Source of the DNA: a virus
IMG/VR virus record: IMGVR_UViG_3300010244_000098
DNA: 64,000 bases
Reading direction: 5' to 3' (one strand)
The notes beneath the pieces were generated by a model. It worked only from the letters and a program-made list of their open reading frames with translations. It was not told the origin of the DNA and searched no databases. This document shows positions 5,078-56,812 of this stretch, one piece after another (positions within the stretch are counted from its first letter, which is position 1; each line of letters opens with the position of its first letter). Both the position numbers and the translations under genes were made by a program.

Positions 5078-7063
5078 ATGAAAATCGAAAATTTTAAAAA
5101 CGATGACCCAAACGATGATTCAACAAACAATCCCAATGGACCATCAAACAATCAAGGGAACGGCCCACCTCCTATAAATGGCGGGCACGGTGTTTCTGCA
5201 AACATCATACCTCCTCCTGATGACCCACAGGACGACGAACGTCCTGAGGCTCTCATTAACTACAATGAAAAAGCGGATACGTTCGACAAGGCTTTGTTCC
5301 GCGATGAAGAAATCGACCGTATGATCACGATCTTATCTTCGAAAAAGAAAGCGAATGCCCTTCTTGTCGGTGACGCCGGCGTTGGAAAAACTCAAATTGT
5401 TGAGGAATTTGCCCGACGATACGAAATCGACCAGGACCCTGTTCTCATTGAACGTTTCGGAGATGACCTTCAGATTGAAGAACTTCGTATCTCCAGTTTA
5501 ATATCCGGAAAATCCGTCGTTGGTCAATTGGAGCAGGAAGTTGAAAAGGTGCTTAATTATACGAAAGAAACAAACAGTATTGTTTTTATCGACGAACTGC
5601 ACCGATTATTCTCTCCGGGACCGGCGCAAAATATCAGTCAAGACCTGAAACAGGCGCTGGGTCGTGGCGACGTTCAATTTATCGGCGCAACCACAACCCA
5701 GGAAGTTGAGGCCATACGGGAGGAATCGGCCTTTAATCGTCGTTGGAGCGATGTCATCGTTGATGAGTTAACACCGGAGCAGACCGAAACGATTCTTCGT
5801 CACGCTAAAAGCGGTTATGAAAAATACCATAATGTTCGCTATCCGGACCATCTTTTATCAACGATTGTCCGTTACGGTGATCTATACAAACGCTCCGGTT
5901 CACACAGACCGGATTCCGGACTGACACTCATGGACCGTGTTGGTGCTTCTGTAGGACTGGAAGGCATACAGCGCCGTCAATCCGACGACCCTGTTGTTCA
6001 ACAGTTCGTTCAAACGAACCCGGTACCCCGCGTATCTGAACAAGCCGTTAAAAAGATAGCGAAGTCGCTTGTTCAAAAGCCGGGTGCTGTGGAATCAACC
6101 GAATCGATAGAGGACATGTTGCAGAACACCATCATCGGACAAAAGGAAACAAAAACGAAAGTCACCGAAACAATCAAACGTATCAAATTAGGACTGTTAG
6201 ATCCTAAACGCCCTCACAGTTTCTTATTTGCCGGCCCCAGCGGTACAGGAAAAACAGAAACAGCCAAACAATTAGCGAACTATATGTACGGGGATAAGCG
6301 TGCAATGATTCGACTGGATATGAGTGAATTCTCTGAAAAAGCAAGCATTAACCGAATCAAGGGCTCTCCAGACGGCTACGTGGGGTCAACAAGCAAACAA
6401 CCTCTGCCTTTTGACAGTCTTGTCTCCAATCCACATCAGATTATTCTGCTTGATGAGATTGAAAAGGCTCATCCGGACGTTCGATTATTATTTATGCAGA
6501 TTTTAGACGAAGGGTTCTTCACGACAGAGCGACACGTTACTGTTGATTTTACGAAATCTATTATTATTGCAACAACAAACTCCGGCGTTGAAGAATTAAA
6601 CACAACGTCTATCGGTTTCAATCAGCCGGCACGAAAATCCAGTAAAGACATTCTTACAGCCTTAAAACAAGATTTTCCTGTGGAACTGTTGAACCGGTTC
6701 GAACATATCGTAGCCTTCCAAGGACTTAATATTGACGAATACAAACAGATTCTTGCTATCAAATACAATCAATTAATCACTGAAGCCAATAACAATCGTC
6801 CCGATTTAACCTTTAAACCTGCGTTCATTGATCCTTATGACGATGACGCCTTAGCTATGCTCAACCAGATTGCCGAAGACAGTTTCGATCCAAACTTAAA
6901 TGGTCGTCCCGCTGAGAGAACTATTCAGCGTCATATGGAAAACCACGTATTAGAACATATGAACGACACGAAACAAATCTTATTTGAGGATCCAAAACAA
7001 CAATACTCTGTCCAGCAATCTGCTCTACCTTCGCAACAAAACCAGTTAACCGACAATCAGTAA
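5078..7063 (+). CDS. Clp/Hsp100 ATPase no. 1: two AAA+ modules, no Clp-N or M domain, with an IGF loop
   Basis: GDAGVGKT, IVFIDELH, GATT; GPSGTGKT, RLDMSEF, GSPDGYVG, LLDEIEKAHPDV; SIGF after the second sensor-1. Confidence 0.88.
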   Translation: MKIENFKNDDPNDDSTNNPNGPSNNQGNGPPPINGGHGVSANIIPPPDDPQDDERPEALINYNEKADTFDKALFRDEEIDRMITILSSKKKANALLVGDAGVGKTQIVEEFARRYEIDQDPVLIERFGDDLQIEELRISSLISGKSVVGQLEQEVEKVLNYTKETNSIVFIDELHRLFSPGPAQNISQDLKQALGRGDVQFIGATTTQEVEAIREESAFNRRWSDVIVDELTPEQTETILRHAKSGYEKYHNVRYPDHLLSTIVRYGDLYKRSGSHRPDSGLTLMDRVGASVGLEGIQRRQSDDPVVQQFVQTNPVPRVSEQAVKKIAKSLVQKPGAVESTESIEDMLQNTIIGQKETKTKVTETIKRIKLGLLDPKRPHSFLFAGPSGTGKTETAKQLANYMYGDKRAMIRLDMSEFSEKASINRIKGSPDGYVGSTSKQPLPFDSLVSNPHQIILLDEIEKAHPDVRLLFMQILDEGFFTTERHVTVDFTKSIIIATTNSGVEELNTTSIGFNQPARKSSKDILTALKQDFPVELLNRFEHIVAFQGLNIDEYKQILAIKYNQLITEANNNRPDLTFKPAFIDPYDDDALAMLNQIAEDSFDPNLNGRPAERTIQRHMENHVLEHMNDTKQILFEDPKQQYSVQQSALPSQQNQLTDNQ

Positions 7064-7150
7064 ACTCTTTCTTCTCTTGATGTAATGCACGGCCTCTCCG
7101 GCCGTGTCCTTTCCTGGTGAAGAAAAGAGGCAGAAAGGAATGGATTATTT

Positions 7151-10100
7151 ATGCCAATTACAATCAACGCTCAAAACCCATTAAACGATATTGAAAAAGT
7201 AAGTAAAGAATTCACTTCAATCGCGTCTCATTCACCAAAATTCTTTTCGAATAAACTAACAGGGAACGGAAAATCAAGAGGACTTATAAGCAAAGAAGTC
7301 AACCGATTAGGCGATCAACTGCAGAGTCACGGACGCGCTTTGCAAGAGGATTCTTGGCTCACCGCACGTCGTTTGGACGACTTAATTGAAGACACCTTAT
7401 ACCTGAATACGTACAGTGCTTCGTTAAGCAATAACGACGAACCTTATGCGAACGGCTTCACCAAAAACAGCCTAAAAGAGACTATCAACGATTCCACAGA
7501 TGTCTATGAAATCAAAGACGTTATTGATTTAGAAACAATCAATCCGTTGTTATTAAACGACCTTCATTTAGATATGGTCTACCCATTAGATACGGTGCTG
7601 TGGGATTTAAATAACGTTGAAGAATGGACAGAGATTGCCCGGGAAAACAATAAAGTATTACGGGCAAAACTTCTATTCAGTCATATGTCTCTTTTGGAAA
7701 AAGAAACTTCTTTGGCAAAAGGCAGTAAGACAAAGAAAACTCGGTTTGTTCTTACGCCCTTTTTACTAACAAGCGTAGCCAATACAGATACAGTCCAAGA
7801 CCGTCTAACAATCAATGCCGATATAAACGTCGCCGATGCTCACCGGGTTCGAATTACACCGATCCGTATCAATGAACAAACAGATTCAAACGGTCGTCTC
7901 GTTCTTGAATATGACTACGGCGTTCCTCAAAACTCAATGTACTTGGATAATTTTGCAAAGAAAGCCATTGAAGATTTAACAACCGATTCTACGATTCGAT
8001 ATCGTTCCGAGTTGAAAGAGTATGTGCGAAACGTTTCCGTTTATGAAACCTTGTGTGAACAAGCCGAGCGATACCAAGAACACTCTATGGACCAATTTGT
8101 CCGTATCATTGAGGAGTTAAGCGTGCAGGCAACAGCCGGACGCTCTCGTGACAGCCAGCTTGCCAGCTACTACAGTCTGGTGAACAAACTGGAGGATATT
8201 GAAAAACAAGGCGGGAAAATCAAAACAGACGAACTTGACGCCGTCTATAGCGCTATCGTTCACGATCCTGTCTTGAATGAGAAAGATAAGGACAATGTAC
8301 TGAAACAATCCCTGCGATTATTGCTAGCACACCGCTTAAGTACACTGGCAGATGCTAAAGACAACGGAAAACTTTATAACTTCCAGCCTTTAGACGATCA
8401 AATCAAGGATAATGTGAAACAAAGTTCGATGTACTCAAAACAACAAAAAGATATCATTCTGACTGAAGAACCGTTAAGCATTGGTCAGGCAGGAGCCGGT
8501 TCAGGGAAATCTCATACCGTTACCGGACGTATACACTACCTTCAAGCTCAGCAGGAAGATCTGAACCAAGTTCTTGTGTTGAGTTTTACCAACGTTGCTG
8601 CACAAAATATCTCTAACCGCTTCCCCGGCATTAAAAGTAAAACTTTAGCAGACATGTTCCACTCTATATATAAAGATTCATTCCCTCTGCAACACCTTTC
8701 TACACCAGGAACGTTGATTAACAGTCTGCGTTTGTTGAACCCTCATTCGGCGTATTTTACGTCACTAAAAGGACACAATGGAGACGATGTTGAGACAGCG
8801 ATTCGCGAACTGGGTAAAATAATGAAAAACGTAGCCTCTCGTTTCGGGAAAAACAATGATGTTCAAAGCAATATGCGTCGATTGATGAACCTTATCGGCG
8901 AGAAACCAGACATCATCCTGTCTATTCTTGACGCTATAGAGCAGACAACACTGGAAATTGAACCCATCATCATTCACCACTTCTTAAATAATGACCCAAG
9001 TCAATTAGCTATTCCACAAGAGTTTCAAGACTTGAATATGATTATCACGGACGAAAGCCAGGACATATCTACCTTTGAATACATCATGTTGATCGATATG
9101 GCTTTATACTACGGTTGTCAATTATTGATTGTTGGTGACGGAAGTCAAACATTGTATGAATTCCGTAACTCAGATCCTCGTTATCTAAACGCCTTAGAGT
9201 CCTCCGGTGTGTTTGCCACATATAAATTAGAAACCAATTACCGTTCAAGCGGAGAAATTCTAACAATGGCCAACCAATTCCTACAGGTGATCGAGGCCAA
9301 CGATGTAGCGAATATCCAGTTACGTCCGAACAGTTTCAGAACACCGACTCTCGAATCCTTTAAAGATAGTGTCACTGTGTACAGTGCCCTTCCTTCTTCT
9401 CCAGAACGGAAAAATCGTCGCGATATACTGGAAGACCATTTACTAGGGAACGATGAGTTTATGGATTGGTTTTATGACAAAATCGATAATGATGAACAGG
9501 TCGCTTTCTTAGCTCATACAAGAAAAGACGTCGCTGTTGCTGAAGAAGCGTTGAACACTCTGCTTCAAAGACATGGACGCACGGATGAGGTCACAAATAT
9601 CGTATCCAAACGTGTTTACGAAAAACGCTATATTTCCGACGTACTGCTTTCTGTTCGTGCAGACTTTGTTCAAATTAATCCAAAAGCTTCCAATTTCTTC
9701 GATCAAGTGACTCAGTTATTTGACGAAAACAATTCTCAAGTTCGTTCATGCTTCTATGGGAAAATCACGGATAAACAATTAGCATGGAACGTTCAAGATA
9801 TCAGGGACACTTTTGCTATGGTGGCTACACAGCCCCATATTAAGGCTATGCGTAAAGAAGTCGCATTAGGACAGCGTCAAGGTCCTGATGTTATGCACGC
9901 TATATTGCAGGATATGCTTCGAGAAGAAACACGTCAAAACAATATGAAACACGTTTTGGAATCCAAAGAAGAAATCGACTTAACCGGCAAAGCAGTCGTT
10001 GTATCAACAATCCACGCTGCAAAAGGGTTAGAGTTTGACCACACAATTGTTGTACACCACCAAAGAGAACACGTATCCAACGTGGATACCGATAAAGCTC

Positions 10101-10288
10101 AGGAACAATTTCGTATGCAGTTTGTTGCTCTAAGTCGAGCGAAGAAAACGGAATGGATTATCAATACACAGCTTGAACCTTCTGTGTCTGTTTCCGACCA
10201 GCCTTCTGCAATGTACAAAACGCCGATGACAACGGCATTCTTGCGTGCGTCAGAACAAGCCCGTAAAGCCAACGCCGTCGGTGTGTAA
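7151..10288 (+). CDS. UvrD/PcrA-like superfamily 1 helicase with a ~400-aa unassigned N-terminal region
   Basis: QAGAGSGKS, LVLSFTNVAA, ITDESQD, VGDGSQTLYEFR, LETNYRS, STIHAAKGLEFD, VALSRAK. Confidence 0.9.
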   Translation: MPITINAQNPLNDIEKVSKEFTSIASHSPKFFSNKLTGNGKSRGLISKEVNRLGDQLQSHGRALQEDSWLTARRLDDLIEDTLYLNTYSASLSNNDEPYANGFTKNSLKETINDSTDVYEIKDVIDLETINPLLLNDLHLDMVYPLDTVLWDLNNVEEWTEIARENNKVLRAKLLFSHMSLLEKETSLAKGSKTKKTRFVLTPFLLTSVANTDTVQDRLTINADINVADAHRVRITPIRINEQTDSNGRLVLEYDYGVPQNSMYLDNFAKKAIEDLTTDSTIRYRSELKEYVRNVSVYETLCEQAERYQEHSMDQFVRIIEELSVQATAGRSRDSQLASYYSLVNKLEDIEKQGGKIKTDELDAVYSAIVHDPVLNEKDKDNVLKQSLRLLLAHRLSTLADAKDNGKLYNFQPLDDQIKDNVKQSSMYSKQQKDIILTEEPLSIGQAGAGSGKSHTVTGRIHYLQAQQEDLNQVLVLSFTNVAAQNISNRFPGIKSKTLADMFHSIYKDSFPLQHLSTPGTLINSLRLLNPHSAYFTSLKGHNGDDVETAIRELGKIMKNVASRFGKNNDVQSNMRRLMNLIGEKPDIILSILDAIEQTTLEIEPIIIHHFLNNDPSQLAIPQEFQDLNMIITDESQDISTFEYIMLIDMALYYGCQLLIVGDGSQTLYEFRNSDPRYLNALESSGVFATYKLETNYRSSGEILTMANQFLQVIEANDVANIQLRPNSFRTPTLESFKDSVTVYSALPSSPERKNRRDILEDHLLGNDEFMDWFYDKIDNDEQVAFLAHTRKDVAVAEEALNTLLQRHGRTDEVTNIVSKRVYEKRYISDVLLSVRADFVQINPKASNFFDQVTQLFDENNSQVRSCFYGKITDKQLAWNVQDIRDTFAMVATQPHIKAMRKEVALGQRQGPDVMHAILQDMLREETRQNNMKHVLESKEEIDLTGKAVVVSTIHAAKGLEFDHTIVVHHQREHVSNVDTDKAQEQFRMQFVALSRAKKTEWIINTQLEPSVSVSDQPSAMYKTPMTTAFLRASEQARKANAVGV

Positions 10289-10296
10289 TTGATCAC

Positions 10297-10336
10297 ACCC
10301 CCTTTGTATCCATACGGATATGAGGGGGGGGTTTAC
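10297..10336 (+). terminator. Probable intrinsic terminator after the helicase
   Basis: CCCCC...TATCC-atac-GGATA...GGGGG stem followed by TTT. Confidence 0.5.
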
Positions 10337-10410
10337 ATCATCTATCGTTACGAGTAAAGGACGTTTTACGGATACACGACTCGAATAAGACAGAAAAAGG
10401 AGTCAATACT

Positions 10411-10728
10411 ATGCAAACATGTATCAGTCTAAAAGCCTTATGGCAATCGAAAGACAATATAGAAGAACTCAGTGATGAGTCCGCTATGGCGGAACTGGAT
10501 CACGGCGGGTTTTTAGAACTCGGAGACGACAATGGACCCTTTTACCAAATCAGAGGACACTCCGGAAACCTTCTGTGTTTAGACGGCGAGGAAATTGACA
10601 TCGTCCAAGTTGGACGAGATAACTATCGGTGCATCAACCGACTCGGTGAAGTCGACACGAGGTTTCACATCAGTCAGAACGAGTATGACCACGCTATCTT
10701 TGGACAAGGAGCCGTTAACACCATGTAA
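10411..10728 (+). CDS. Hypothetical protein (105 aa)
   Basis: AAAGGAG RBS and ATG; no motif recognised. Confidence 0.65.
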   Translation: MQTCISLKALWQSKDNIEELSDESAMAELDHGGFLELGDDNGPFYQIRGHSGNLLCLDGEEIDIVQVGRDNYRCINRLGEVDTRFHISQNEYDHAIFGQGAVNTM

Positions 10729-10787
10729 CCTGTTTTTTAGCATAAACGGTATTTAAAACAACACAATAAACAAAGGAGTGCTGCACT

Positions 10788-11039
10788 ATGGTATTAGATA
10801 AACAAAAAGTCGTCGATCACCTTATTGATGAACACATTATATCGAAAGATGTTGCTGAGATAATGAAAAACGCTGATAATGGAAGGTTAGGTTCCGGTTA
10901 TGAAAATATTTTGACCGAAGAAGATGGCTCTCCTACTTTATTTGTGATCGAATTGGTAAAGCTGACTGGTTACAACATCAATGAATTTTGCGATGAAGAA
11001 AACAACGGGTCTGTGAAAGACAAAGAACAAGTAAAATAA
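10788..11039 (+). CDS. Hypothetical protein (83 aa)
   Basis: AAAGGAG RBS and ATG; no motif recognised. Confidence 0.65.
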   Translation: MVLDKQKVVDHLIDEHIISKDVAEIMKNADNGRLGSGYENILTEEDGSPTLFVIELVKLTGYNINEFCDEENNGSVKDKEQVK

Positions 11040-11119
11040 GAGAAGATAGCCGTATAGATTCAGAAACTTAAGCAAAATCAATGAACTATCCGCTGATGTT
11101 TAACTATTTCACCCACTTT

Positions 11120-11154
11120 CCCCTGCTTGTCCAACAAGCAGGGGTTTATTTTTT
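11120..11154 (+). terminator. Intrinsic terminator
   Basis: Perfect 10-bp stem CCCTGCTTGT-cca-ACAAGCAGGG followed by a T-rich tail. Confidence 0.8.
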
Positions 11155-11227
11155 TCTGATAAGGATATCATTGAGAAAACAAATACAACCCTGTGTATTG
11201 TTGACACAATCCGATCAGCCATTAGAG

Positions 11228-11243
11228 GGGATTCATGAATCCC
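11228..11243. promoter_or_regulatory. Perfect 16-bp palindrome (candidate operator) upstream of tmk
   Basis: GGGATTCA|TGAATCCC overlaps the expected -35 position of a TAGAAT -10 at 11262-11267. Confidence 0.45.
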
Positions 11244-11296
11244 TCCCCTTCTGATAAACTATAGAATGAATAACTACGATGAAAAGGAAGATTGCT

Positions 11297-12211
11297 ATGC
11301 TGAAAAAGAAAGGCCTATTGATCGAAATTGAAGGAGGCGAAGGAGCAGGGAAAAGCACTATTGTTAATCAGCTCAGACAACATCTGGAAAAAGATACTCA
11401 CGTTATAACGTTTCGCGAACCCGGCGGACGAGAGTTCTCAGAGGATATACGAGAGTTGTTCATGCGCTATGAAAATCTATCCACGGAGACTTATGTTCAT
11501 CTAATCAATGCTCAACGACAAGAGAATATCGAAAAAGTGATATCTCCTGCGATAACAAAAGGACATATTGTTATCGTTGACCGTTTTCTGGCCTCTACCC
11601 TCGTCTATCAAGGCCTTATGGAAGGTGCGTATGAAAAAACAGTCAAATACGCTATCGGTTACCCTTCCGTTACCCTTCTTGTTGACACACCAGCTGATGT
11701 AGGCCTGAAGCGCATCCATGATAATCAAAGAGAGACCAACCGCATTGATTTATGGCCTGTCGAGAAACATAATCATGCAAACAAGTATTATAAGCAACTG
11801 GGTTGTTACTACCCGAGCCGATATTGGGATATCGTTCTCAACGGGCGTCATGATACACAGACTATCGACAAACAACTGCACCGTATCGCCCAAGACATTG
11901 TTCCTTATATCAACGACAACCGTGCACTGCACGAGTTAAAAAGTGATTTACGTCTTACATATAATGCGCCTGCTGAGGAAAAACGCAAAGAAAAACCCCA
12001 ATTGGATATGGACCCATTGGATGTTCCTGTTGATCAGCTGTCCCTGCCCAACCAAGTTACATTTGCCTTAATGCGCTCGCGAATATTTACGATTCGAGAA
12101 CTCATCACGACCGATCACAATTTTATACAAAAGATCCCTCGTATAGGGGCAAAATCATTAGACCAAATCAATGACGCAATCGACCATTGGTTGCATGTAA
12201 ACCAGTTATGA
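11297..12211 (+). CDS. tmk: Thymidylate kinase fused to a C-terminal RNA polymerase alpha-CTD-like domain
   Basis: LIEIEGGEGAGKST P-loop, FREPGG, IVDRFLASTLVYQG; C-terminal LDVPVDQLSLPNQVTFALMRSRIFTIRELI...KIPRIGAKSLDQINDAI aligns by eye with RpoA CTD. Start at ATG 11297 (AAAGGAAG RBS). Confidence 0.85.
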   Translation: MLKKKGLLIEIEGGEGAGKSTIVNQLRQHLEKDTHVITFREPGGREFSEDIRELFMRYENLSTETYVHLINAQRQENIEKVISPAITKGHIVIVDRFLASTLVYQGLMEGAYEKTVKYAIGYPSVTLLVDTPADVGLKRIHDNQRETNRIDLWPVEKHNHANKYYKQLGCYYPSRYWDIVLNGRHDTQTIDKQLHRIAQDIVPYINDNRALHELKSDLRLTYNAPAEEKRKEKPQLDMDPLDVPVDQLSLPNQVTFALMRSRIFTIRELITTDHNFIQKIPRIGAKSLDQINDAIDHWLHVNQL

Positions 12212-12231
12212 TACAGAAAGGATTGACATCG

Positions 12232-12786
12232 ATGATTCAAGCAAACAATAGACCTCTTGCTTTTTTAACTCTTGTTTACGAAAACGTTCAAGGGATTACT
12301 GTGCCTGCTGATCATATTCAGCATATTGCATTGCAACAAAATCACACTCTGTTCTGGGGCGTAGATCAAAGTACAAATGGCAATACGCCTATTGCTATTG
12401 ATGAGTCAAGAATAGTGGATTTTTATTCCATAATGATCCGTCCTTTTTCAACGGTTATCAACGAAGACGATAAAATGTTCTATGTTGATGAAAGGCAAAC
12501 AGAAGAAGCGTTCATCAAAGATTCAATCCTCGGTCGTGCTGATTTATGCGGGATCGATCTTCACTATGAAGACGGAACGTCCACCTTATTTGAAATAGAC
12601 TGGACGATGTCTTGTTATTATTACGAACAAATACTCGTGGAGAAAAATACAGAACAAGAATTATTCGAAGAAATGCACCACTCTTTTCAAGAAACAACGA
12701 TCGATAACGACTGCTGGGTATTGACTATGGACCCAAGAAAACCCAATCAAAAAGCAAAAGACTACGTGGAAAAAGCGACCCAATAG
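12232..12786 (+). CDS. Hypothetical protein
   Basis: ORF in the operon; start moved to ATG 12232 after GAAAGGA. Confidence 0.65.
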   Translation: MIQANNRPLAFLTLVYENVQGITVPADHIQHIALQQNHTLFWGVDQSTNGNTPIAIDESRIVDFYSIMIRPFSTVINEDDKMFYVDERQTEEAFIKDSILGRADLCGIDLHYEDGTSTLFEIDWTMSCYYYEQILVEKNTEQELFEEMHHSFQETTIDNDCWVLTMDPRKPNQKAKDYVEKATQ

Positions 12787-12841
12787 GCGACTTTTTCTGC
12801 AGTTGCTTAAAAAGGATTAACCAACACGGAGGAGAACAATA

Positions 12842-13204
12842 ATGAATAAATATAAGAAACGATTGATGAAAGCATCTAAAAGAATGTCTGCCGATCAACA
12901 CAAAAAAGGGATTCGGATTGCGGACGCTATCGTACAGTATGCGGAAAAGCACGGCTACACCCGTAAAAAAGTGGCAAAATTAATCGAAAAAGGCAAATTG
13001 TTAGTCTTTTACGACAAAGCTGTATTGTTTGACCATTTGTATGCAAAAGATCAGAACGATGAGGATAAAGCGCAAATGCTTCAAGATATTGCTGAAAACC
13101 GCGCCCAGAATGATTTCGATAAAGGCGGGATTCTTATGGATATCCTGATAAAAAATCATGAAAATATCGAACAAATCGACACCATTTACTTCTTAAAAGA
13201 ATAA
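12842..13204 (+). CDS. Hypothetical protein (120 aa)
   Basis: GGAGGAG RBS; translationally close to rarA. Confidence 0.7.
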   Translation: MNKYKKRLMKASKRMSADQHKKGIRIADAIVQYAEKHGYTRKKVAKLIEKGKLLVFYDKAVLFDHLYAKDQNDEDKAQMLQDIAENRAQNDFDKGGILMDILIKNHENIEQIDTIYFLKE

Positions 13205-13216
13205 AAGGAGGTTTCC

Positions 13217-14488
13217 ATGCCCAAAAACTTAGCCTATGATATGCGACCAAAAACAATCGATGACGTTGTAGGACAAGAACACTTGACCAGCGGAAAAGGC
13301 ATTATCCGACGCATGGTTGATGCCAAACGGCTGCAATCTATCATTCTCTACGGCCCTCCGGGAACAGGAAAAACAAGCATCGCCAGCGCGCTGTCAGGGT
13401 CTACCGGTATCCCTTTCCGGCAATTCAACGCCGGAGTGGATACGAAGAAAGAACTGCAGGCGTTTGCTAAAGAACTTAAAGAAGACAACGATCAATTGAT
13501 TATCTTGTTGGATGAAATACACCGATTGGACAAGCCTAAACAAGACTATTTGCTTCCTTTCATGGAAAGCGGTCAGTTTGTCATTATTGGTGCAACGACC
13601 GAAAACCCTTATATATCCATTCAACCAGCTATTCGAAGCCGGACAAGTATATTTGAAGTACACCCGTTAACGAGTGAAAACTTAAAACGTCTTGCCCATT
13701 CTGCTCTAACGGATAAGGAGTACGGATTAGGTGCATTGAACGCCACATTGACCGAAGAAGCGCTTTATACGTTAACACACAGCACTAATGGCGACGTACG
13801 AAGTTTGCTCAATGCTTTAGAGTTAGCGGTTCGTTCTTCTCCCGATAACGCACCGCTTATTGAAAAAGAAGATATCGAAGCCTGCGTACAAAAGAAAAAT
13901 ATATCCGGAGATAAAGACGGAGACAGTCATTACGACCTCATTTCTGCTTTTCAAAAATCCCTCCGGGGAAGTGATACTGACGCAAGTCTTTACTATTTGG
14001 CACGGCTTATTGAGACAGGAGATTTAGAAATCATTTGTCGTCGCCTTCTCGTCACGGCCTATGAAGATGTCGGTATTGCTGAACCATCGGTTTCCATGTT
14101 TGTCAGCCACGCCACTCAAGATGCTCTGCGTGTTGGCCTTCCTGAAGCACGGATTCCTCTGGCCGATGCGGTTGCTCTCGTTACTACCGCTCCAAAAAGC
14201 AATAAAGGATACAGCGCTCTAGACCGGGCCAGTGAAATGCTTGAGATCCCCGTTCAGATCCCTGACCATTTAAAAGACGCTCATTACAAAGGAGCCGGAA
14301 AACTCGGCCACGGAACAGATTACCGTTACGCCCATGACGGCAAATACGGCTGGGTCAAACAGCAATACTTACCCGATGAATTGATCGGCCATCGTTTCTT
14401 GGACACAACAGATAAAGACACAACGGCCCCTACTGAACGCCGATTATTAGACCGTGTTGACCAATTATGGACTCAACAACACAAATAA
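13217..14488 (+). CDS. rarA: Replication-associated recombination protein A (RarA/MgsA AAA+ ATPase)
   Basis: LAYDMRPKTIDDVVGQEHL, YGPPGTGKTS, LLDEIHRLDKPKQDYLLP, IGATTENPY, GDSHYDLISAFQKSLRGSD, HLKDAHYKGAGKLGHG, QQYLPD. Confidence 0.95.
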   Translation: MPKNLAYDMRPKTIDDVVGQEHLTSGKGIIRRMVDAKRLQSIILYGPPGTGKTSIASALSGSTGIPFRQFNAGVDTKKELQAFAKELKEDNDQLIILLDEIHRLDKPKQDYLLPFMESGQFVIIGATTENPYISIQPAIRSRTSIFEVHPLTSENLKRLAHSALTDKEYGLGALNATLTEEALYTLTHSTNGDVRSLLNALELAVRSSPDNAPLIEKEDIEACVQKKNISGDKDGDSHYDLISAFQKSLRGSDTDASLYYLARLIETGDLEIICRRLLVTAYEDVGIAEPSVSMFVSHATQDALRVGLPEARIPLADAVALVTTAPKSNKGYSALDRASEMLEIPVQIPDHLKDAHYKGAGKLGHGTDYRYAHDGKYGWVKQQYLPDELIGHRFLDTTDKDTTAPTERRLLDRVDQLWTQQHK

Positions 14489-26661: not shown

Positions 26662-29600
26662 TTAGGTATAACTATACGACAAATCTCCAAAATCCATATC
26701 ATTCCCTTGGTCTTGTTGTTTTGTCTTATTGACCGCGTCTTTAGAGTAAGATTCGTTTGCACGAACCGCCTCTTTCAACATTTCGTGGTCGTAGGTCTCC
26801 TCATTGGGGGATTGTTCGTTTGTCGGAACACCCTGACCTTTTTGGAACTGCTTTAAGAAATCACGGTTGCTTTCATTCAAATCGCCTCGGTCGTTGGCTT
26901 TATACACCTGACCTCCTACGACTTTTTCTTCCGGTTGATGTTGACCGGCTAATTCTTTCATTTTCTCTTGTTTCTCCTTGATGAATGTTTTTTGCGCCTC
27001 ATATTGTTCCTTCGCTTGACCAAAATCACGGTCCAAATGTTTATGCACGTTCTTATAATCAACGTGATAAGGTTGAGAGTATTTTGTCTCCGTCACTTGT
27101 TTTGGATAAGCTGGATTCATTTCGTTCCACTCTTTGATTTTTTTCATGCCGTTTGCCCCATGTTTAGCCAAAATATCCAGAGTGTCGGAATTTTCAAAAG
27201 CATTTCGCTGGTGATTTCTCATCAATCCGGCGTTTTCTCTCGGAGAGTCCTCTGGCTCACGAAACGCTAATTGATAATAATCGACTTCTAAATCGGATAC
27301 GCTTAGTCCTGCGTCACTAAAAATAGATTTCATCCCTAAACGATACACACTCTCGCTATCGATAGGGGTATAATCATCTCCTTGTTTCAGATTTGATTTC
27401 CAATCGATTCTTTCCTCGTCGGCATAGAATTGTTTCATTTTTTCTGGATCATCCGAATAGAAATTCGGATAACGATCTGTCACCACGCCGTGATTGATGT
27501 CTGCATAAATAGATCCTTTGGCCGACCCTTTCGCATCCTCATTATACGTATTCGCTAACATATGGTCCATTTTACGAGCTAAAGCAACATCTGTTCCATT
27601 TGCCGCCTCCTCGAATGGACCGGGAGCACGGCCTGTTTGTACGTCGCCCACCCGTTTTGCTGTCTCCTCCGGTGTCTTTCCGAACATTTCTGAAGAAAAC
27701 TCAACCCATACAGGTTTGGACTCATCTGATTGTTGAACATCCTCTTTGTGTCCTTCGAATAATTTAGGCGATTCCTTCAAGAAACGTAACGCTGCCGGCA
27801 CGTCATTGGGGCTGTGTTTGATCTGCAGAATAGACTGAGACGCTGTTTCTGTCACATCCATCCCAACAGCCGCACCGGGAATGCGTCGACGTCCGCGGTA
27901 AAAATCATAATCCGCTAATACGTCCGTTACCTTCAATGTTTGAGCCCCGCTTCGTCCGATTTCGTCAACTTTTGTTTTCTGTGCTGTACGAACGGAGTTG
28001 ATATTATTCGGCGTCACACCATTTTTCAAATAAGGAGCGTTCCGTTCCTGAATGTCCGGTTCTTTTCCTTTCGCTCCGTCTTTAGCCATCGCGTATTGAG
28101 ACTCTAACAACGTATTTTCGTTTTGAATATCTACATACCGACTTGGATAATTATGACTATTTGTAGCCGTTACCTCAGTTAATTCTGATACTTTCGGGAA
28201 CGTATAGTCATCAATAACGTTTCGGTACGCTTCGTCATAAATAGCATTCCCTTGCTCAAGAATATCCCGATCCTCGTCAGACAACAATTCTGGACGAATG
28301 GCTTTATTCTCAACAATATTGTCAAAACGTTCTACATCGAAATCCTCATATTGAGATACAACATCGAATTGTTCATCAACCTGTCGCCATGTTTGTTCTT
28401 CGATATACTGAATGTAATCGTTCATGACGTCCTTGGGTTTGTTATCTTTGAAATAAGACGGGTCTTCCTGCTCTTTTCGTCCAGCCCATGATACTTGTTG
28501 ACGGAAGCCTTGTTCGCTGTCATCGTTAATCCATTCTTTCATGTAATCAACATTATCCATCCCTACATTGAGAATGGCTAATTCATTTCGTTTATCCATC
28601 ATGTTGTAGCGAATGTTTAATTTTTTGTCCCATTCCTGTTGAACTTCTTCGTCATCGATATAGGCAACTCCGAACGTATCGCCGTCAAAGTCAGCCCCCA
28701 TTGTGGCTGTCATCATTGGGTTGATGCTTACTCCAGTTAAACGTTCGTCAACACGATAGTCCATCGCAAAAACCGAACCATCATGGAGTACAGGGTCACG
28801 CCAAACCATGAGTTTGTCGCCTTCCGCCTCTTTTTTCGTCTGCCAATTTCCCCGGGCAGCTTCGTGGATTTTTGAAATGTTTCCAGTCTCCACTGCCTGT
28901 TCCCAGGATTCTTTGTCGATAGGTTCCAATACGCCGGCATTGATACCCATTGCCGGTGAAATACCCACTTTATCAAGTTCAAGAGACGTGTCGTTCGTTA
29001 GGATTGCTGTTGCCGAGTTCCGCATTTCTTTAGATAAAATTTTACGACGTGTGAACGACTGCTTGTTGCTTTTTCCATCAACACCAAACTGGTCTTTTTC
29101 AACACTGTTTTGATATTTGTTGACTTCTGTATCCAGCAATCGGGTTAGACGAGTGTAATCTTTTAAATTTTCTGATAAAGCCGTAGCCATAACTTCTCGA
29201 CTTTCATCACCTTTTACAGCATTGATCTCGTCCTTCATTTTTTCAGAAAATGGATAATTCGCTTTTTCTTTCATAAATTGATCATCGCCGGATTCATACA
29301 ATTGCTTCAAGTCATCTTCTGTGAGTTCAGGGTTCCCCATTCGCTCTTTAAAATCGTCCAGCCCTTGTTCATAAGTTAAAAGGTACTCCATTTGAAGATC
29401 TTCGACCTGTGAACCAAAATCAGCGATTCGATTTAACGACATTGTATAATCGTGTTCAACAAATTCTCCGTCGAATGATTTGGTTTCCCGACGCAAACGC
29501 TCTGCTAGGATGGGCATATAATTTGTTTGAACAGGACGAGGACTGTTGTCGTCTTTATAGGCCTTATGATTGATAGGCAGCTGCATATAAGACGCTTCTT

Positions 29601-32600
29601 CAGGCAGTCCGTATTCGGCAATATCTCTTGAAGATATCACTAGGAAGTCTTTGTCTCCATTTGGTGATTCAAACCGTTCAACCGACCCGTCTTCCTGCTC
29701 TCGTTCTTCGATATTCATGCCGTAACGTCCTTGACGCAACACGTTATCTTCGCCTGTTGTATATCCCAGAACATTTTGATAATGCAATAAATCTGCATGT
29801 TTTTTCTCGCTGTTGCCTAGAATATAACCGATTGTTTTGTCGGCTCCGTGGGACTGCAGAGCTAAACTTTGTTGGTAAGAAAACGTCCGATGACGCCCTA
29901 GATCCTGTAACTCATACAAATTCGTTTTATGTTCCGCGTCCATGTTCGTTACGATGACGGAAATTTCTCCGGCGTAGCCTCTAGTCTGTCCTTTGTTTGG
30001 ACCGTTCTGATAGGTGATAGCACCTTTACGGTCTTCGTTGGAATGGATCAACTCTTGTCCAAGCCCCATGTTCGCACGGCTTGTCATCCCGTAAGGGGAC
30101 TGAATCATATCCAATGGATACCCACTGTCTTCTGCGTCTTTAAATGCTTGTTCTGCGTCCTCATTATACCCGGGGTGGTTCGGATCCAGGCCTGAGATGT
30201 ACCCGATCACTCCTTTGTTGGAATGGTTATCGGCCAGTTTGTCCCCGATACGCAGTCCATGTTCTTCAGCAAACTCATCAGAAACAACAATAGAGTCCTC
30301 AAACGTTAGTCCACCGGCTGTCATCAACCCCACTCGTACACGGTCCCGTTCTTCTTCTTTGTCGAGTGGACCGCCGATGATGTCTTTGGCTACTTCACTC
30401 ATTTTCGATGTCATCAACACCCGATCCGGCGAGTCATATTGAGCATAATTACCGCGCATTCGCCGCACCATTGGACTGGCGTACATATAACGATGATTGC
30501 GTGTGCCTTCGTATAACTCTCGAAATGCTTCGTTTTGAGCATCTCGATTTCCTTGCTCACGGGCTGTCGTCCACCGGTTGAACGTTTCGGCTAAGTCGGG
30601 GCGTTCAAGGTTAGGGATCTCATCCAGAATTTTCTTCAATGGTTTTGATGCCTGTTGGCCTGTTACCCAGCGCTCTAACGGTGTTTCTTCTCCGTTGTCG
30701 CGGTGGAGCATACCCAATTGACCTGTTCGTTCAAAATTGAAACCTTTTTCTCCTTTATTTTCTTCAATGAAGTCCATAAATTCTTCCGTAAAATACCCGC
30801 GAAGTCCTAACGTTGCGCCGTCACTGGACGCTTGTGCGTCATACACGCCTTCAAGCCCTCTCAGTGGCAGACGAATAGATTGAGGTTGTCCGTACTGGTC
30901 TCTATCTTCTTTTGATTGTGGACGGGAATCTTCGCGAAGCTCTCCGTCACGATTCAGGTAGCTTTTATCAATTAAGAACGAATTACGCAAATGTTCAACA
31001 ACACCGGGACGGTCCATTCTTTCTCGGTCGATACGGCCCATGTCTTCATATGCTTTATTCATTCTTGTTACGTCATACATTTGATCACGGTCGGCTGACG
31101 CGTCGTTTCGTCGAGTCAACACCTGCGACTTCACAGAAGCATGGATAGCGGAGTGCATTTTTTGATCCAATCCTGTGATTTTCATGCGTTCCAGTATATG
31201 TGATTTATTCTGTGTTGGTGGGACAAACGCTACGTTGTAGTTATCAACACGCAAGTCTTCACGGCCATTTCCTCGGCGCAGGTCGAGAACGCCTTCCTTA
31301 CGGAGAAGGTTTCCGTCTCCGTCATATTCATTCTCTCTAGCCGGGAAAAAGAATTGACCCATTTTGAATTGAACCGGTTCAGATTCAATCACCTCGTTCG
31401 TCTGAGAATCAAACGCCGTGCCCCGGTCTCCGCCCCAGTGGAGCACGCCATCGTTGTCAAAACGGCCCTGGAAATGGCGAATACCCGCTTCTTCTGCCGC
31501 ACGTTTAGTCGTACGTAACACTTTTTCATAATCTTCCTTGTTCGATGTTTTTTCCAGATCCATCCAGCCGGCTAAAGGCTGGTCGGCATCGTCTGTTAAA
31601 CCTACCATCATGTTGGCGATTCGTTCACGAGAGCCTTGTTGCACCTCTACTTCTTCCTCTGCGGTGTGATCCAGGCTATCTTCGTCGTATCCTTCGTTTT
31701 GTGCCTCTGAGTTATATGATCTGTCTTCATTATGTAAAGGTTCACGTTTTCCATACATCAATTCATTACGGATATCGTCGATCGACTGACCCTGATTCAA
31801 CCGTTCCTCCGTATCATCATGCACCAGCCGCATAATTGTACCCATGTCTGAATGACGCATAACAACATCCATATCGATATCGTCCATGTTGATCGATCCA
31901 TCTTCATGGCGCACATCGTCTAAATCAATCAAACTGTCCACTTCGTTTTCATCACTGGACAATTGAGCTTTTTCGTACGCCTGCTCAACAAGTTCTGTCA
32001 TGGTCTGCGGTTGTAACAACTGGTCAACCTCTTGACGTTTGTAAGATTGAGGGTGACGTGTTCGTGAAGGCGTATTATGACCAATTGTAAACGATACATC
32101 ATAGCGGATAGAATTTCCTGAAGCGGATCTTTTTAGATCGGAATCTTTATTCATTCCTACGCTTGTAGCGTCAGACAAGGTTTTTGCTTTATGTACATCG
32201 AAGTGTTGATATTTCGATAAATCGGTCCCTTCCATGAAATATTCAACAGCAGGAATCAGAGACGCCGTTGACTCCCTTCCATCGCTGGCTCTGGCCAACA
32301 AATGACTGTTACGGAACACTGTGTTTCCATTCACATAAAATTTTCCTAAATCTTTTTCTTTCGGTGTAAATCCTAAAACATCAATCTGATTATTTCCAGA
32401 TTGAACAGTGAAACGTAAATCTTCTTGATTTACCCCGGTTACATGGACGTTCTTCATTGTCCATCCTTTTTCGTCCAGTTTTTGCTTCAAGCTTGTTCCG
32501 AAAGCGATCATACGCGGAGACAAGACGCGTTTATCCGATAAACCCCCTTTTTGCAACTCTCTAATTTGAGCAGGTGTCAGATTTAAATTAGCCTGGCTTA

Positions 32601-32964
32601 ATACGCCGTGAGGGTCTCGATTGATTTTTGGGTTATGACCCATTGAAAAGGCGCTGTTTACATCAATAAGCTCCTTTAATGAATAATAATTCACGTTGTC
32701 TTCAAAACGATTATTAGCCATTTTAGTATAAAATTCTCCATCATACCCTCGACCGTTGTCGTTTCGTAACTCACTCATCGCTTGGTTGGACGCCTGTTTC
32801 TTATCGTCTCCCGATAACCGTTGAGCGAAAGGAACATTTTGATGTGTTACATCGTACTTTAACCCGCTCGGGCGTCTGCGATTCGGCAGACTGTCCAGAT
32901 ATGTATCGTAATCTTGTTGATTTTCAATTTTAGGTTTTCCATTTTTCGTTAATTGTAAATCCAT
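26662..32964 (-). CDS. Single-polypeptide two-barrel (double-psi beta-barrel) DNA-dependent RNA polymerase, beta/beta' fusion
   Basis: Beta-like: SSDGATLGL, DSPDRVLMTSKM, TFEDSIVVS (E889/D890), GDKLADNHSNKG (K909/K917), SPYGMTSRANMG, RTFSYQQSLALQSHGA. Beta'-like: ILSKEMRNSATAIL, VWRDPVLH, INPMMTATMGADFDGD (D1425/D1427/D1429), bridge-helix-like VRTAQKTKVDEIGRSGAQTLKVTDV, trigger-loop-like AVGMDVTETASQSILQIKH (H1717). Confidence 0.93.
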   Translation of the reverse strand: MDLQLTKNGKPKIENQQDYDTYLDSLPNRRRPSGLKYDVTHQNVPFAQRLSGDDKKQASNQAMSELRNDNGRGYDGEFYTKMANNRFEDNVNYYSLKELIDVNSAFSMGHNPKINRDPHGVLSQANLNLTPAQIRELQKGGLSDKRVLSPRMIAFGTSLKQKLDEKGWTMKNVHVTGVNQEDLRFTVQSGNNQIDVLGFTPKEKDLGKFYVNGNTVFRNSHLLARASDGRESTASLIPAVEYFMEGTDLSKYQHFDVHKAKTLSDATSVGMNKDSDLKRSASGNSIRYDVSFTIGHNTPSRTRHPQSYKRQEVDQLLQPQTMTELVEQAYEKAQLSSDENEVDSLIDLDDVRHEDGSINMDDIDMDVVMRHSDMGTIMRLVHDDTEERLNQGQSIDDIRNELMYGKREPLHNEDRSYNSEAQNEGYDEDSLDHTAEEEVEVQQGSRERIANMMVGLTDDADQPLAGWMDLEKTSNKEDYEKVLRTTKRAAEEAGIRHFQGRFDNDGVLHWGGDRGTAFDSQTNEVIESEPVQFKMGQFFFPARENEYDGDGNLLRKEGVLDLRRGNGREDLRVDNYNVAFVPPTQNKSHILERMKITGLDQKMHSAIHASVKSQVLTRRNDASADRDQMYDVTRMNKAYEDMGRIDRERMDRPGVVEHLRNSFLIDKSYLNRDGELREDSRPQSKEDRDQYGQPQSIRLPLRGLEGVYDAQASSDGATLGLRGYFTEEFMDFIEENKGEKGFNFERTGQLGMLHRDNGEETPLERWVTGQQASKPLKKILDEIPNLERPDLAETFNRWTTAREQGNRDAQNEAFRELYEGTRNHRYMYASPMVRRMRGNYAQYDSPDRVLMTSKMSEVAKDIIGGPLDKEEERDRVRVGLMTAGGLTFEDSIVVSDEFAEEHGLRIGDKLADNHSNKGVIGYISGLDPNHPGYNEDAEQAFKDAEDSGYPLDMIQSPYGMTSRANMGLGQELIHSNEDRKGAITYQNGPNKGQTRGYAGEISVIVTNMDAEHKTNLYELQDLGRHRTFSYQQSLALQSHGADKTIGYILGNSEKKHADLLHYQNVLGYTTGEDNVLRQGRYGMNIEEREQEDGSVERFESPNGDKDFLVISSRDIAEYGLPEEASYMQLPINHKAYKDDNSPRPVQTNYMPILAERLRRETKSFDGEFVEHDYTMSLNRIADFGSQVEDLQMEYLLTYEQGLDDFKERMGNPELTEDDLKQLYESGDDQFMKEKANYPFSEKMKDEINAVKGDESREVMATALSENLKDYTRLTRLLDTEVNKYQNSVEKDQFGVDGKSNKQSFTRRKILSKEMRNSATAILTNDTSLELDKVGISPAMGINAGVLEPIDKESWEQAVETGNISKIHEAARGNWQTKKEAEGDKLMVWRDPVLHDGSVFAMDYRVDERLTGVSINPMMTATMGADFDGDTFGVAYIDDEEVQQEWDKKLNIRYNMMDKRNELAILNVGMDNVDYMKEWINDDSEQGFRQQVSWAGRKEQEDPSYFKDNKPKDVMNDYIQYIEEQTWRQVDEQFDVVSQYEDFDVERFDNIVENKAIRPELLSDEDRDILEQGNAIYDEAYRNVIDDYTFPKVSELTEVTATNSHNYPSRYVDIQNENTLLESQYAMAKDGAKGKEPDIQERNAPYLKNGVTPNNINSVRTAQKTKVDEIGRSGAQTLKVTDVLADYDFYRGRRRIPGAAVGMDVTETASQSILQIKHSPNDVPAALRFLKESPKLFEGHKEDVQQSDESKPVWVEFSSEMFGKTPEETAKRVGDVQTGRAPGPFEEAANGTDVALARKMDHMLANTYNEDAKGSAKGSIYADINHGVVTDRYPNFYSDDPEKMKQFYADEERIDWKSNLKQGDDYTPIDSESVYRLGMKSIFSDAGLSVSDLEVDYYQLAFREPEDSPRENAGLMRNHQRNAFENSDTLDILAKHGANGMKKIKEWNEMNPAYPKQVTETKYSQPYHVDYKNVHKHLDRDFGQAKEQYEAQKTFIKEKQEKMKELAGQHQPEEKVVGGQVYKANDRGDLNESNRDFLKQFQKGQGVPTNEQSPNEETYDHEMLKEAVRANESYSKDAVNKTKQQDQGNDMDFGDLSYSYT

Positions 32965-43086: not shown

Positions 43087-44979
43087 CTATGCCCGGAGTT
43101 TATGCTGATTTTCCAGCGTTAATTTTGTTAAACTGGCTCGCTTCATTGTTGTCGTCAGTTCACCAATGTATCCGTCACGGGTTACAAAAAGAGCCATTAA
43201 ATGAGAGTCCGTTGTGACTCTTGTCTTATTGTCGATAGCCATTTCACCGTCTACAACGATTCGAACCCACGCCAAAGCCCTGTTGTTATCCCGAGCTCCT
43301 TCTATCACGCGGGCAACCAACGGGGTTACTTCCCGTTCAATTCGTCGATTCATAGCACGGCCACCACCCGCACTTGTGTTGTTCAATGCACGGAAACGTT
43401 CTTTTACGAGATAGTCGGCCACCCGTTTTTCAAACGATAAATCGAATTGGAAATACGATTGGACCCGATCAACGACTGTATTTAATTCAATACGAGCAAT
43501 GTTTTCATATGTATCTTCTTCAAGAGGAGCAAAAGGAATCACTTCATCAAAACGACCTAAGAACTCCGGAGAAAATGTCTGTCCAAGTTGATCCCGGAGT
43601 AACATATCCATTTCTTCCACTTTTAAATTCTGACTGCGAAGGTCCTTAAATACGTCCGCCGCTCCGTTTGTGGTAATGGTCATGATAGCGTTGGTAAAAG
43701 TCACCTGTCGTCCATATTGGTCCGTTAACCGACCATCGTCCAGTATGGCTAATAACATGTGCATAATACTACGGTGTGCTTTTTCAATCTCATCTAATAA
43801 CACAACACTATAAGGGTATTTGCTGATATCTCTTGCAATTCGTTTCTGGAATACCCCCACATCATCGGCCATGGAGTATTCAGACATGTCGTAACGGATC
43901 AAGAATTTCTCATCTCCGAACATGCTCTCAGCCATAGCCTTCGCTAATTGGGTTTTTCCGACCCCGGTTGACCCAGCGAATAAGAAGTTCGCCAACGGCC
44001 GTGTATGGTCTTGAAGCCCGGTATTCGCAACAAACAGCCGGTCTTCGATCATTTGCAGGGCTGTTTCCTGTCCCATGACTTTTTTCTTAATGTGAGTCAT
44101 GACACTATCGATGTCGGTTTTCCAGTCTACATCAACCCCTGCTTTATCTTTCATGATACGAGCGATCAATTCGTGATCGACATACCCTTTTAAATGTTCT
44201 TTTGCAAAATCTCCCCGGTCGACACCAATGCGGGCACTACGGTAAAACCCAATCGCCGCATCGAGAATGTCGATTGATTTAGCCGGTTGAGCAAAAGCCG
44301 GAAGAAAACGATTTGTATAATCAACAATCTCGTCATAAATATTCGGTTGAACAATGTAAGGAACATTGCTCTTGCCCAGATACGTATGCGCCATGTTTTC
44401 CAGAATCGTTACAACCACGTCCGGAGAAGGCTCCGGCATATTAATAATCTGAGAACGACGAGTTAACGCCTGGTCCGATTTGATATATTTTTCGTATTCT
44501 TCGTCGGTTGTTGCACCGATGATTTTAATCATGCCTCGTTGCATTAGGGGTTTTAAAGCGTCCCCTGCGGCTGAACCGCTTGAACGGCTACTAGAGGTAA
44601 TCAAGTGCATTTCGTCAAGAAACACAATAGTGTCTCCTGTTTCCCCTTTCTTTCGCCGGGCATTATCGAAAGCTAATACGTCATTTGCCAGTCCTTTGAT
44701 CCGTTCGGCAAATTTGTTGTCGCCTTCTCCGCTCATTGTCGGCAGATCTACGTCGAAAATAAGCAACCCCTCCTCTTGATGAAGGGTTGCGTAACCTTCT
44801 ACGAAGCTCGTTTTCCCTACACCGGCAGGACCGAGAAGCACGACGTTGTTCATCTCTGGACGACGCAGGCTGGACTCTAGTGTTTCGTATTGACGTTCTC
44901 GTCCGACAGGCAGTCGGTCAACGGCTTCCATTTTTTCACCATATGTAGCTAAATAAGGAAATGATTCGTATGAAATCAT
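43087..44979 (-). CDS. Clp/Hsp100 ATPase no. 2: two AAA+ modules, pore loops altered or deleted
   Basis: GPAGVGKT, VFLDEMH, IGATTDEEY, ALTRR; GSTGVGKT, RYDMSEY, LLDEIEKAH, FSPEFLGRFD. No Clp-N domain, M domain or GYVG loop. Confidence 0.88.
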   Translation of the reverse strand: MISYESFPYLATYGEKMEAVDRLPVGRERQYETLESSLRRPEMNNVVLLGPAGVGKTSFVEGYATLHQEEGLLIFDVDLPTMSGEGDNKFAERIKGLANDVLAFDNARRKKGETGDTIVFLDEMHLITSSSRSSGSAAGDALKPLMQRGMIKIIGATTDEEYEKYIKSDQALTRRSQIINMPEPSPDVVVTILENMAHTYLGKSNVPYIVQPNIYDEIVDYTNRFLPAFAQPAKSIDILDAAIGFYRSARIGVDRGDFAKEHLKGYVDHELIARIMKDKAGVDVDWKTDIDSVMTHIKKKVMGQETALQMIEDRLFVANTGLQDHTRPLANFLFAGSTGVGKTQLAKAMAESMFGDEKFLIRYDMSEYSMADDVGVFQKRIARDISKYPYSVVLLDEIEKAHRSIMHMLLAILDDGRLTDQYGRQVTFTNAIMTITTNGAADVFKDLRSQNLKVEEMDMLLRDQLGQTFSPEFLGRFDEVIPFAPLEEDTYENIARIELNTVVDRVQSYFQFDLSFEKRVADYLVKERFRALNNTSAGGGRAMNRRIEREVTPLVARVIEGARDNNRALAWVRIVVDGEMAIDNKTRVTTDSHLMALFVTRDGYIGELTTTMKRASLTKLTLENQHKLRA

Positions 44980-56780: not shown

Positions 56781-56812
56781 AAAAAGACAAGCCGCAAAGG
56801 GCTTGTCTTTTT
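56781..56812. terminator. Bidirectional intrinsic terminator
   Basis: Perfect 13-bp AAAAAGACAAGCC-gcaaag-GGCTTGTCTTTTT between convergent genes. Confidence 0.88.

Follow-up and report, generated by a model that had tools for sequence, protein, structure and literature searches.

A thymidylate kinase with an alpha-CTD-type tail on a conjugative-type element, and the tandem-module cassette from which the tail appears to descend

The C-terminal domain that the alpha subunit of bacterial RNA polymerase (RNAP) carries (alpha-CTD) is the enzyme's textbook docking arm. The locus described here raises the question of what such a domain is doing at the end of a thymidylate kinase (Tmk). It lies on the IMG/VR virus record IMGVR_UViG_3300010244_000098, represented by a stretch of 64,000 nucleotides that was analysed as a whole (the window) and that belongs to a large conjugative-type element, probably from a plant metagenome. 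A preliminary description, made from the sequence alone, had reported a gene in which an intact-looking Tmk is followed by an alpha-CTD, and had offered three functions for the tail: a decoy for host activators or NusA, a partner of the element's own RNAP, or a tether that places synthesis of deoxythymidine diphosphate (dTDP) at a transcription or replication complex. The fusion proves to be real, rare, evolutionarily persistent, and under selection. It combines two well-known domains with a widespread, as yet undescribed cassette; neither a Tmk/alpha-CTD fusion nor the cassette was found described in the published literature.

The body of the protein, P0001, is that of an active-looking kinase of deoxythymidine monophosphate (dTMP). 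The Pfam family Thymidylate_kin (PF02223) matches aa 11-168 with an E-value of 1.1e-30 and 107.1 bits against a cut-off of 27, the PHROG thymidylate kinase family matches at 2.7e-32, and among PDB sequences the kinase part matches S. aureus TMK best (7.5e-26), with the motifs aligned. The P-loop, E12-G-G-E-G-A-G-K19-S, occupies aa 12-20 (nt 11330-11356); the remaining kinase motifs are REPGG at 40-44, R74, D95-R96-F97, Y104-Q105-G106, and R139 of the LID. Nineteen catalytic or structural residues are invariant over 30 aligned Tmks, and P0001 keeps every one of them. Together with the alignment to S. aureus TMK, in which all nucleotide-binding and catalytic motifs are shared (PDB 4MQB, 2CCJ), this bears out the earlier view of the kinase domain as intact. 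Identity to the chromosomal Tmks of Paenibacillus and other Bacillota is approximately 35-40%. Unlike bacterial Tmk, P0001 belongs to a separate, element-borne clade and has a 24-residue helical extension, after which most members of the clade carry alpha-CTD modules.

Structure prediction also suggests that P0001 forms a homodimer. The score of 0.55 (best control 0.00) is reached by 20 of 30 solved homo-pairs and by 1 of 23 solved single chains, and it may reflect likeness only rather than constitute proof, because Tmk dimers are themselves solved structures. At least 75% of the contacts agree between runs, the pLDDT (predicted local distance difference test) of the partner is at least 82, and the predicted interface, aa 47-79, lies wholly within the Tmk and uses the same helices as the S. 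aureus enzyme.

The tail belongs to the alpha-CTD family by sequence as well as by fold. RNA_pol_A_CTD (PF03118; gathering cut-off 23.8 bits) scores 31.5 bits on the whole protein and 35.3 bits (E-value 9.8e-9) on aa 225-304 alone, so that the Pfam match suggested earlier as a check for aa ~240-305 was indeed obtained. A phmmer search of the tail against PDB sequences returned RNAP alpha subunits only, the best being that of Thermus (1.8e-6). The AlphaFold2 model of the tail alone, computed with its few relatives, has a pLDDT of 94.5, and the best 50 PDB matches of this model in Foldseek are all RNAP alpha-CTDs, with TM (template modelling) scores of 0.64-0.79. The fold is the compact five-helix double helix-hairpin-helix, (HhH)2, of alpha-CTD structures such as PDB 1DOQ, 1COO, 3K4G, 1LB2, and 3GFK, with a root-mean-square deviation of 0.9-2.2 Å to isolated alpha-CTD domains. 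A word-based search with aa 225-304 returned only the query itself, because the tail is too diverged for that tool. The N-terminal domain of RpoA (alpha-NTD; RNA_pol_L or RNA_pol_A_bac) has no Pfam match in P0001, whose body is Tmk; not being attached to an alpha-NTD, the tail does not make the protein an RpoA. As in RNAP alpha, the models nevertheless suggest a domain hanging by a flexible linker from a dimerising N-terminal body.

In E. coli, the '265 determinant' for DNA contact consists of R265, N268, C269, G296, K298, and S299, and the '261 determinant' (D259, E261) contacts sigma region 4. Alignment of the tail to RpoA of E. coli MG1655 reproduced the substitutions first noted, R265 to Q and N268 to F, and the retention of G-x-K-S, which reads G-A-K-S at E. 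coli positions 296-299 (G296, K298, S299). Furthermore, C269 is replaced by A, D259 by Q, and E261 by S. The tail therefore keeps the last three positions of the 265 determinant and has lost the first three as well as the 261 determinant, and in this it differs from the E. coli domain with its contacts to UP elements (upstream promoter DNA) and sigma region 4. Its identity is 31% to the E. coli alpha-CTD and, in fold alignments, 19-33% to solved alpha-CTDs.

That the fusion is not an assembly artefact follows from the presence of P0001 on three contigs and from a homologue, P0002, which is 64% identical and has the same architecture. The open reading frame at 11297-12211 and the residues quoted from it in the preliminary description are exact. 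The tail was said to begin near nt 12008; this is the codon of Met238, and DPLDVPVDQ follows from aa 239 (nt 12011). In the full-length model (pLDDT 90.7), the kinase leads into the short helical extension at aa 207-230, then into roughly 10-20 residues of low-confidence linker, and finally into the tail, with pLDDT dropping to 66-72 at aa 221-240. Comparison of P0001 with the 64%-identical homologue, located on contig L001, gives 70% identity in the Tmk, 11% in aa 224-241, and 60-63% in the tail. In nonsynonymous divergence (dN), the tail (0.36) stands between the kinase (0.21) and aa 207-241, which comprise extension and linker (0.56); synonymous sites are saturated, and neither lineage has a stop codon or frameshift in the tail. 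The tail is constrained by selection. Since it is constrained and yet lacks the equivalents of R265 and N268, a retained function other than classical UP-element-type DNA binding is suggested.

A near-length search of 5.8 billion clustered proteins yielded only two further fusions, namely P0002, which has the same length as P0001 and one module, and P0003, a Tmk fusion of 410 aa with two modules. A profile search added P0268 as the fifth fused cluster (412 aa, two modules), and P0123 is a single 599-aa protein comprising Tmk, a helix-turn-helix (HTH) domain, and three modules. On contig L005, the gene of the Tmk P0005 (236 aa) overlaps the next one, whose 388-aa product P0121 combines a sigma-region-4-type HTH (Sigma70_r4 type, 24.4 bits; cut-off 24.1) with three alpha-CTD modules that score 97.8 bits. 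P0123, encoded on contig L008, is a 59%-identical relative. The single 599-aa gene lies at L008:10001-11800 and the two overlapping genes (236 and 388 aa) at L005:6659-8489; the break on L005 falls in an A-rich tract and is either a recent frameshift or a true recent split.

In a maximum-likelihood tree of the Tmk domain, these proteins form an element-borne clade (support 100/97) apart from the chromosomal Tmks. The clade comprises nine protein clusters, five of which are fused to one, two, or three modules and a sixth of which has the cassette as the next gene. Three members without a tail (P0004, P0006, P0007) branch among the fused forms, and the DNA retrieved around these three contained no alpha-CTD module. 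As a control, 133 other Tmk loci (80 metagenomic and 53 from IMG/VR, 1.68 Mb in all) were scanned in six frames with two hidden Markov models of the module, and none holds an alpha-CTD module. These are distant Tmks, at most 41-44% identical among the matches listed, because the patterns taken from the clade alignment are generic; the window's contig is not among them. With six of nine clusters on one side and 0/133 loci on the other, the association of Tmk and alpha-CTD is clade-specific and recurrent rather than a chance adjacency. A tblastn search of P0001 against PLSDB gave 95 Tmk matches, none of which reaches into the tail. Consequently, the answer to the question of how common the fusion is, raised in the preliminary description, is that it is rare and confined to one small element-borne Tmk clade.

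The origin of the tail was traced with a profile of ten modules, searched against 1.84 billion representative proteins. This search gave 9225 matches at E<=0.001, ordinary RpoA necessarily among them, and 815 at E<=1e-10. Of the 815, the best 150 almost all have 2-12 modules and are 195-2091 aa long. In 62 of these proteins that were scanned, PF03118 was found in all 62, Sigma70_r4 in 27, and HARE-HTH in 7. The consensus of 526 non-RpoA modules approximates that of RpoA; the position equivalent to 265 is R in 72% of them, and that equivalent to 268 is N in 66%. Of the 147 non-query proteins in the best 150, P0123 and P0268 alone are fused to Tmk. One cassette-type protein (among P0124-P0270) carries ten modules in 1031 aa.

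A test for tandem modules found one in P0001, two in P0003 and P0268, and three in P0121 and P0123. The window tail aligns best to the last unit of the longer tails, and its last helix contains a Trp that is common to the sister cassette modules and absent from E. coli RpoA; identity to these sister modules is 17-30%. The combination of sigma-70 region 4 with tandem alpha-CTDs that characterises the cassette proteins is exactly that of the sisters P0123 and P0121. Unlike them, P0001 has one unit and no HTH, and the conserved R and N are lost. Neither a Sigma70_r4-type HTH (in P0001 or the whole window) nor a second alpha-CTD module (anywhere in the window) was found, and the P0123 cassette gave no tblastn match in phages or plasmids. 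Common descent with the cassette-bearing proteins is supported by the strongly supported clade with its interleaved fusions and by the Trp helix shared by the terminal module. Judged from these comparisons, the tail appears to be a trimmed and diverged remnant, the last unit, of a widespread sigma-4 plus tandem alpha-CTD cassette that was cut down to one unit in the window's lineage, and it does not appear to have been taken recently from a host rpoA.

The reading favoured here, which is held with moderate confidence, is that P0001 dimerises through its Tmk body and uses its two flexible tails as adaptors, by which dTDP synthesis would be tethered to a protein or DNA partner within the replication module of the element. 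It is built on the domain identities, the catalytic motifs, the linker, the selection acting on the tail, the association that recurs within this clade only, and the conserved helicase and MgsA neighbours. Dimerisation through the helices of aa 47-79 would present two tails on flexible linkers, a geometry like that of alpha2 in RNAP. The arms would then anchor the enzyme to an element complex bound to DNA, most probably the replication or repair machinery whose genes surround tmk, and dTDP would be made at the site of DNA synthesis. Because the equivalents of R265 and N268 are lost, the partner of the tail is more likely to be a protein than the minor groove of DNA. Known systems offer parallels to this arrangement. 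In the T4 dNTP-synthetase complex, enzymes of nucleotide metabolism are tethered to the DNA machinery, and in DisA, a nucleotide cyclase, catalysis is controlled by the binding of a C-terminal HhH domain to DNA. Both resemble P0001 in the idea of a nucleotide enzyme placed or controlled at DNA-bound complexes; neither is related to it in sequence, and the likeness is one of functional analogy only.

Several points weigh against the adaptor-arm reading. The dimeric display, the tethering, and the nature of the partner are all inferred. The substitutions at 265, 268, and 269 remove the most conserved residues of the domain, the R and N among them being kept in most of the 526 modules even outside RpoA, so that the tail may have lost its ancestral activity. 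Since P0004, P0006, and P0007 have no tail, the tail is dispensable for the kinase. Kinase activity is itself a prediction, the candidate substrate being dTMP or a modified deoxyuridine monophosphate, and the idea of dTDP channelling is an analogy with the T4 complex. Nevertheless, tethering is the only one of the three functions first proposed that fits the data, although it too is something we infer.

In an alternative view, which is considered unlikely, P0001 is a nucleotide-sensing regulator. The protein would be a factor directed to DNA or transcription, with the Tmk as its ligand-sensing or output-modulating part, and what the cassette binds would be linked to whether dTMP, dTDP, or ATP is bound, or the reverse. 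The longest forms, in which Tmk is combined with a sigma-region-4-type HTH and three modules, have an architecture typical of DNA-targeting proteins; the cassette is widespread and often occurs without any enzyme; and a unique 16-bp palindrome is found just 5' of the gene. However, the window form has neither the HTH nor the DNA contacts of R265 and N268, and the retention of all Tmk catalytic residues is expected of a working enzyme rather than of a sensor.

Less probable again is the view that the module is a functionless leftover of the ancestral cassette and that the protein is simply the Tmk of the element. The number of modules does fall from three to two, one, and zero across the clade, of which tail-less members exist, and the module in the window has lost the most conserved polar residues. 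A passive tail is difficult to reconcile, however, with the comparison with the L001 homologue given above, in which the tail is far better conserved than the adjoining linker, its dN is lower than that of aa 207-241, and its reading frame is free of stop codons and frameshifts in both lineages. The tail is, moreover, predicted to fold with high confidence.

A third alternative connects the tail with the RNAP of the element. The premise of the preliminary description, an element RNAP without an alpha subunit, holds, since the window contains a 2100-aa fused beta-beta' gene in which the GADFDGD motif is intact. With its two arms, a Tmk dimer could replace the absent alpha2 and guide the enzyme to promoters or activators, and it is consistent with this that the tail of P0001 is the sole alpha-CTD module in 64 kb and that the predicted dimer with two arms resembles alpha2, a resemblance that may reflect likeness to solved Tmk dimers. 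This role is nonetheless regarded as quite improbable. In cellular RNAP it is the alpha-NTD, not the CTD, that docks on the core, and nothing in P0001 resembles an alpha-NTD. Distant relatives of the window RNAP, annotated as 'hypothetical', occur on plasmids of Staphylococcus, Lactococcus, Gordonia, Rhodococcus, and Streptomyces (a search of the RNAP core against genome contigs found no relative). No Tmk is encoded on the seven further plasmids that have an RNAP of this type (0/7), and PF03118 has no match on six of them, the seventh, from Streptomyces, having a complete rpoA paralogue.

The sister proteins point in the same direction. The forms with HTH and three modules lie on a different backbone, with a D5 primase, a 1035-aa protein, MgsA, and dUTPase. 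No RNAP was found on this backbone in one full contig of 34.2 kb and 29.4 kb of another, which are not closed elements, and the large 1035-aa gene upstream of tmk has no PDB or Pfam match, no DxDxD motif, and no similarity to the window RNAP. The proposed link between tail and RNAP thus finds no support, either in the seven plasmids or in the sister contigs. According to the preliminary description, distribution of the fusion independently of the RNAP gene would speak against its interpretation. The data approach this situation without reaching it: independence is likely but not proven, because the D5-backbone contigs are not closed elements.

A related proposal, to which an equally small probability is given, is that the dimer with its arms acts as an alpha2 mimic that would plug into the element RNAP or into the activator network of the host, and would link the state of the thymidine nucleotides, or dTDP made locally, to the start of transcription or replication. 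If this were true, a metabolic enzyme would be serving as a polymerase accessory subunit of an incoming element. Finally, the decoy function, in which a free alpha-CTD mimic would titrate host activators, NusA, or Spx and so rewire host transcription, gained no support and is very improbable: the fold is that of alpha-CTD, and mobile elements and phages often target this domain (for example T4 Alt and ModA), but a decoy should copy the surfaces of the host domain, and the tail has low identity to the E. coli and other solved alpha-CTDs as well as to the sister cassette modules, has changed 261 and 265 determinants, does not conserve the 287-region residues of E. coli, and derives from a non-RpoA cassette common to the sister Tmks.

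The interest of the system extends beyond the single gene. Copies of the alpha-CTD are portable modules in hundreds of unrelated proteins, and the Tmk clade, with zero, one, two, or three modules, offers small, soluble, and easily assayed natural variants. It is therefore a convenient system for determining what non-RpoA alpha-CTD modules recognise, whether DNA, sigma-like HTHs, or proteins of replication or transcription. If the tether is real, the protein would be a clean bacterial example of a nucleotide-synthesis enzyme tethered to the DNA machinery, on a conjugative-type element; should the tail turn out to be an inert leftover, the fusion amounts to no more than a curiosity of domain shuffling. 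The positions of the features of the gene and its surroundings are collected in Table 1.

Table 1. Coordinates in the window of the gene, its parts, and neighbouring features.
Feature	Position	Strand	Basis or remark
Tmk-alphaCTD gene (P0001)	11297..12211	+	304 aa, stop TGA 12209-12211 included
Thymidylate kinase domain, aa 1-206	11297..11914	+	Pfam, motifs, alignment
Helical extension, aa 207-230	11915..11986	+	shared by the whole element-borne Tmk clade (nine members), K215 invariant
Flexible linker, aa 231-241	11987..12019	+	lowest pLDDT of full-length model (66-72)
Alpha-CTD-type (HhH)2 domain, aa 242-304	12020..12208	+	Pfam, phmmer, AlphaFold2, Foldseek
Shine-Dalgarno-like AAGGAAG	11284..11290	+	6 nt 5' of ATG 11297
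Intrinsic-terminator-like hairpin (11120-11144) and T tract	11120..11154	+	11-bp stem, 7 GC pairs
Perfect 16-bp palindrome GGGATTCATGAATCCC	11228..11243	.	between upstream terminator and tmk start
Next gene, 184 aa, no family match	12232..12786	+	21 nt after tmk stop
UvrD-like SF1 helicase	7151..10288	+	upstream neighbour, conserved in window-type backbone
MgsA/RarA-type AAA+ ATPase	13217..14488	+	downstream neighbour, conserved in both Tmk-clade backbones
Fused beta-beta' RNAP, 2100 aa, no alpha subunit	26662..32964	-	intact GADFDGD motif

The ATG at 11297 is favoured over an in-frame ATG at 11279, because it is preceded by AAGGAAG and P0002 starts at the same residue; no ribosome-binding site was found before 11279. 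Since the strong terminator-like hairpin closes the upstream unit, tmk opens a new transcription unit. A promoter scan found no sigma-70-like promoter between the terminator and the tmk start codon. The palindrome GGGATTCATGAATCCC occurs once in the window against a chance expectation of 0.01, and is a possible operator or hairpin. The top sigma-70-like promoter match of the region lies inside the gene (11936-11965, TTAAAA-18-TATAAT, 10/12), approximately 40 nt 5' of the Met238 codon at which the tail begins. It is probably due to chance, because no ribosome-binding site follows and Met238 is not conserved in the homologue. For the same reasons, an internal start at Met238, which would yield a free tail, was rejected.

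The gene order of the replication and nucleotide module is UvrD-like helicase, Tmk, MgsA/RarA, and HD protein. Other recognisable genes of the window include a MoxR/VWA/Clp/UvrD block, an S26 signal peptidase, a topoisomerase IA, a MobL relaxase, ClpB, and LytR and LysM proteins. A megablast search of 9 kb around the gene against phage records gave no match. Contigs L001, L003, and L101, which are too short to reach the position of the RNAP, share the window backbone, with neighbouring genes 55-81% (L001) and 61-83% (L003, L101) identical. On the latter two, compared with window positions 5078-14488, the 61-83% applies to Clp, the UvrD-like helicase, and MgsA, whereas the Tmk, with two modules, is only 39-40% identical; the gene therefore evolves faster than its neighbours or is exchanged between backbones. 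Three Clp/Hsp100-type AAA+ ATPases are encoded in the window (5078-7063, 43087-44979, and 56812-59451). The canonical-looking ClpB is 42-51% identical to chromosomal ClpBs, about equally over many phyla, and for this reason the host cannot be inferred from it.

Among the RNAP-bearing plasmids, that of Streptomyces sp. NBC_01454 (NZ_CP109461.1, 639 kb) carries the fused-RNAP relative and the complete rpoA paralogue approximately 27 kb apart, the regions bearing them lying at about 64-70 kb and 96.4-97.4 kb. On the D5-primase backbone, the gene of approximately 1030 aa just upstream of tmk is conserved (L005:2850-5957, L006:2382-5456, L008:4647-9293), and the copy on L008 is interrupted, with pieces of 729 and 307 aa separated by an unrelated open reading frame of 354 aa.

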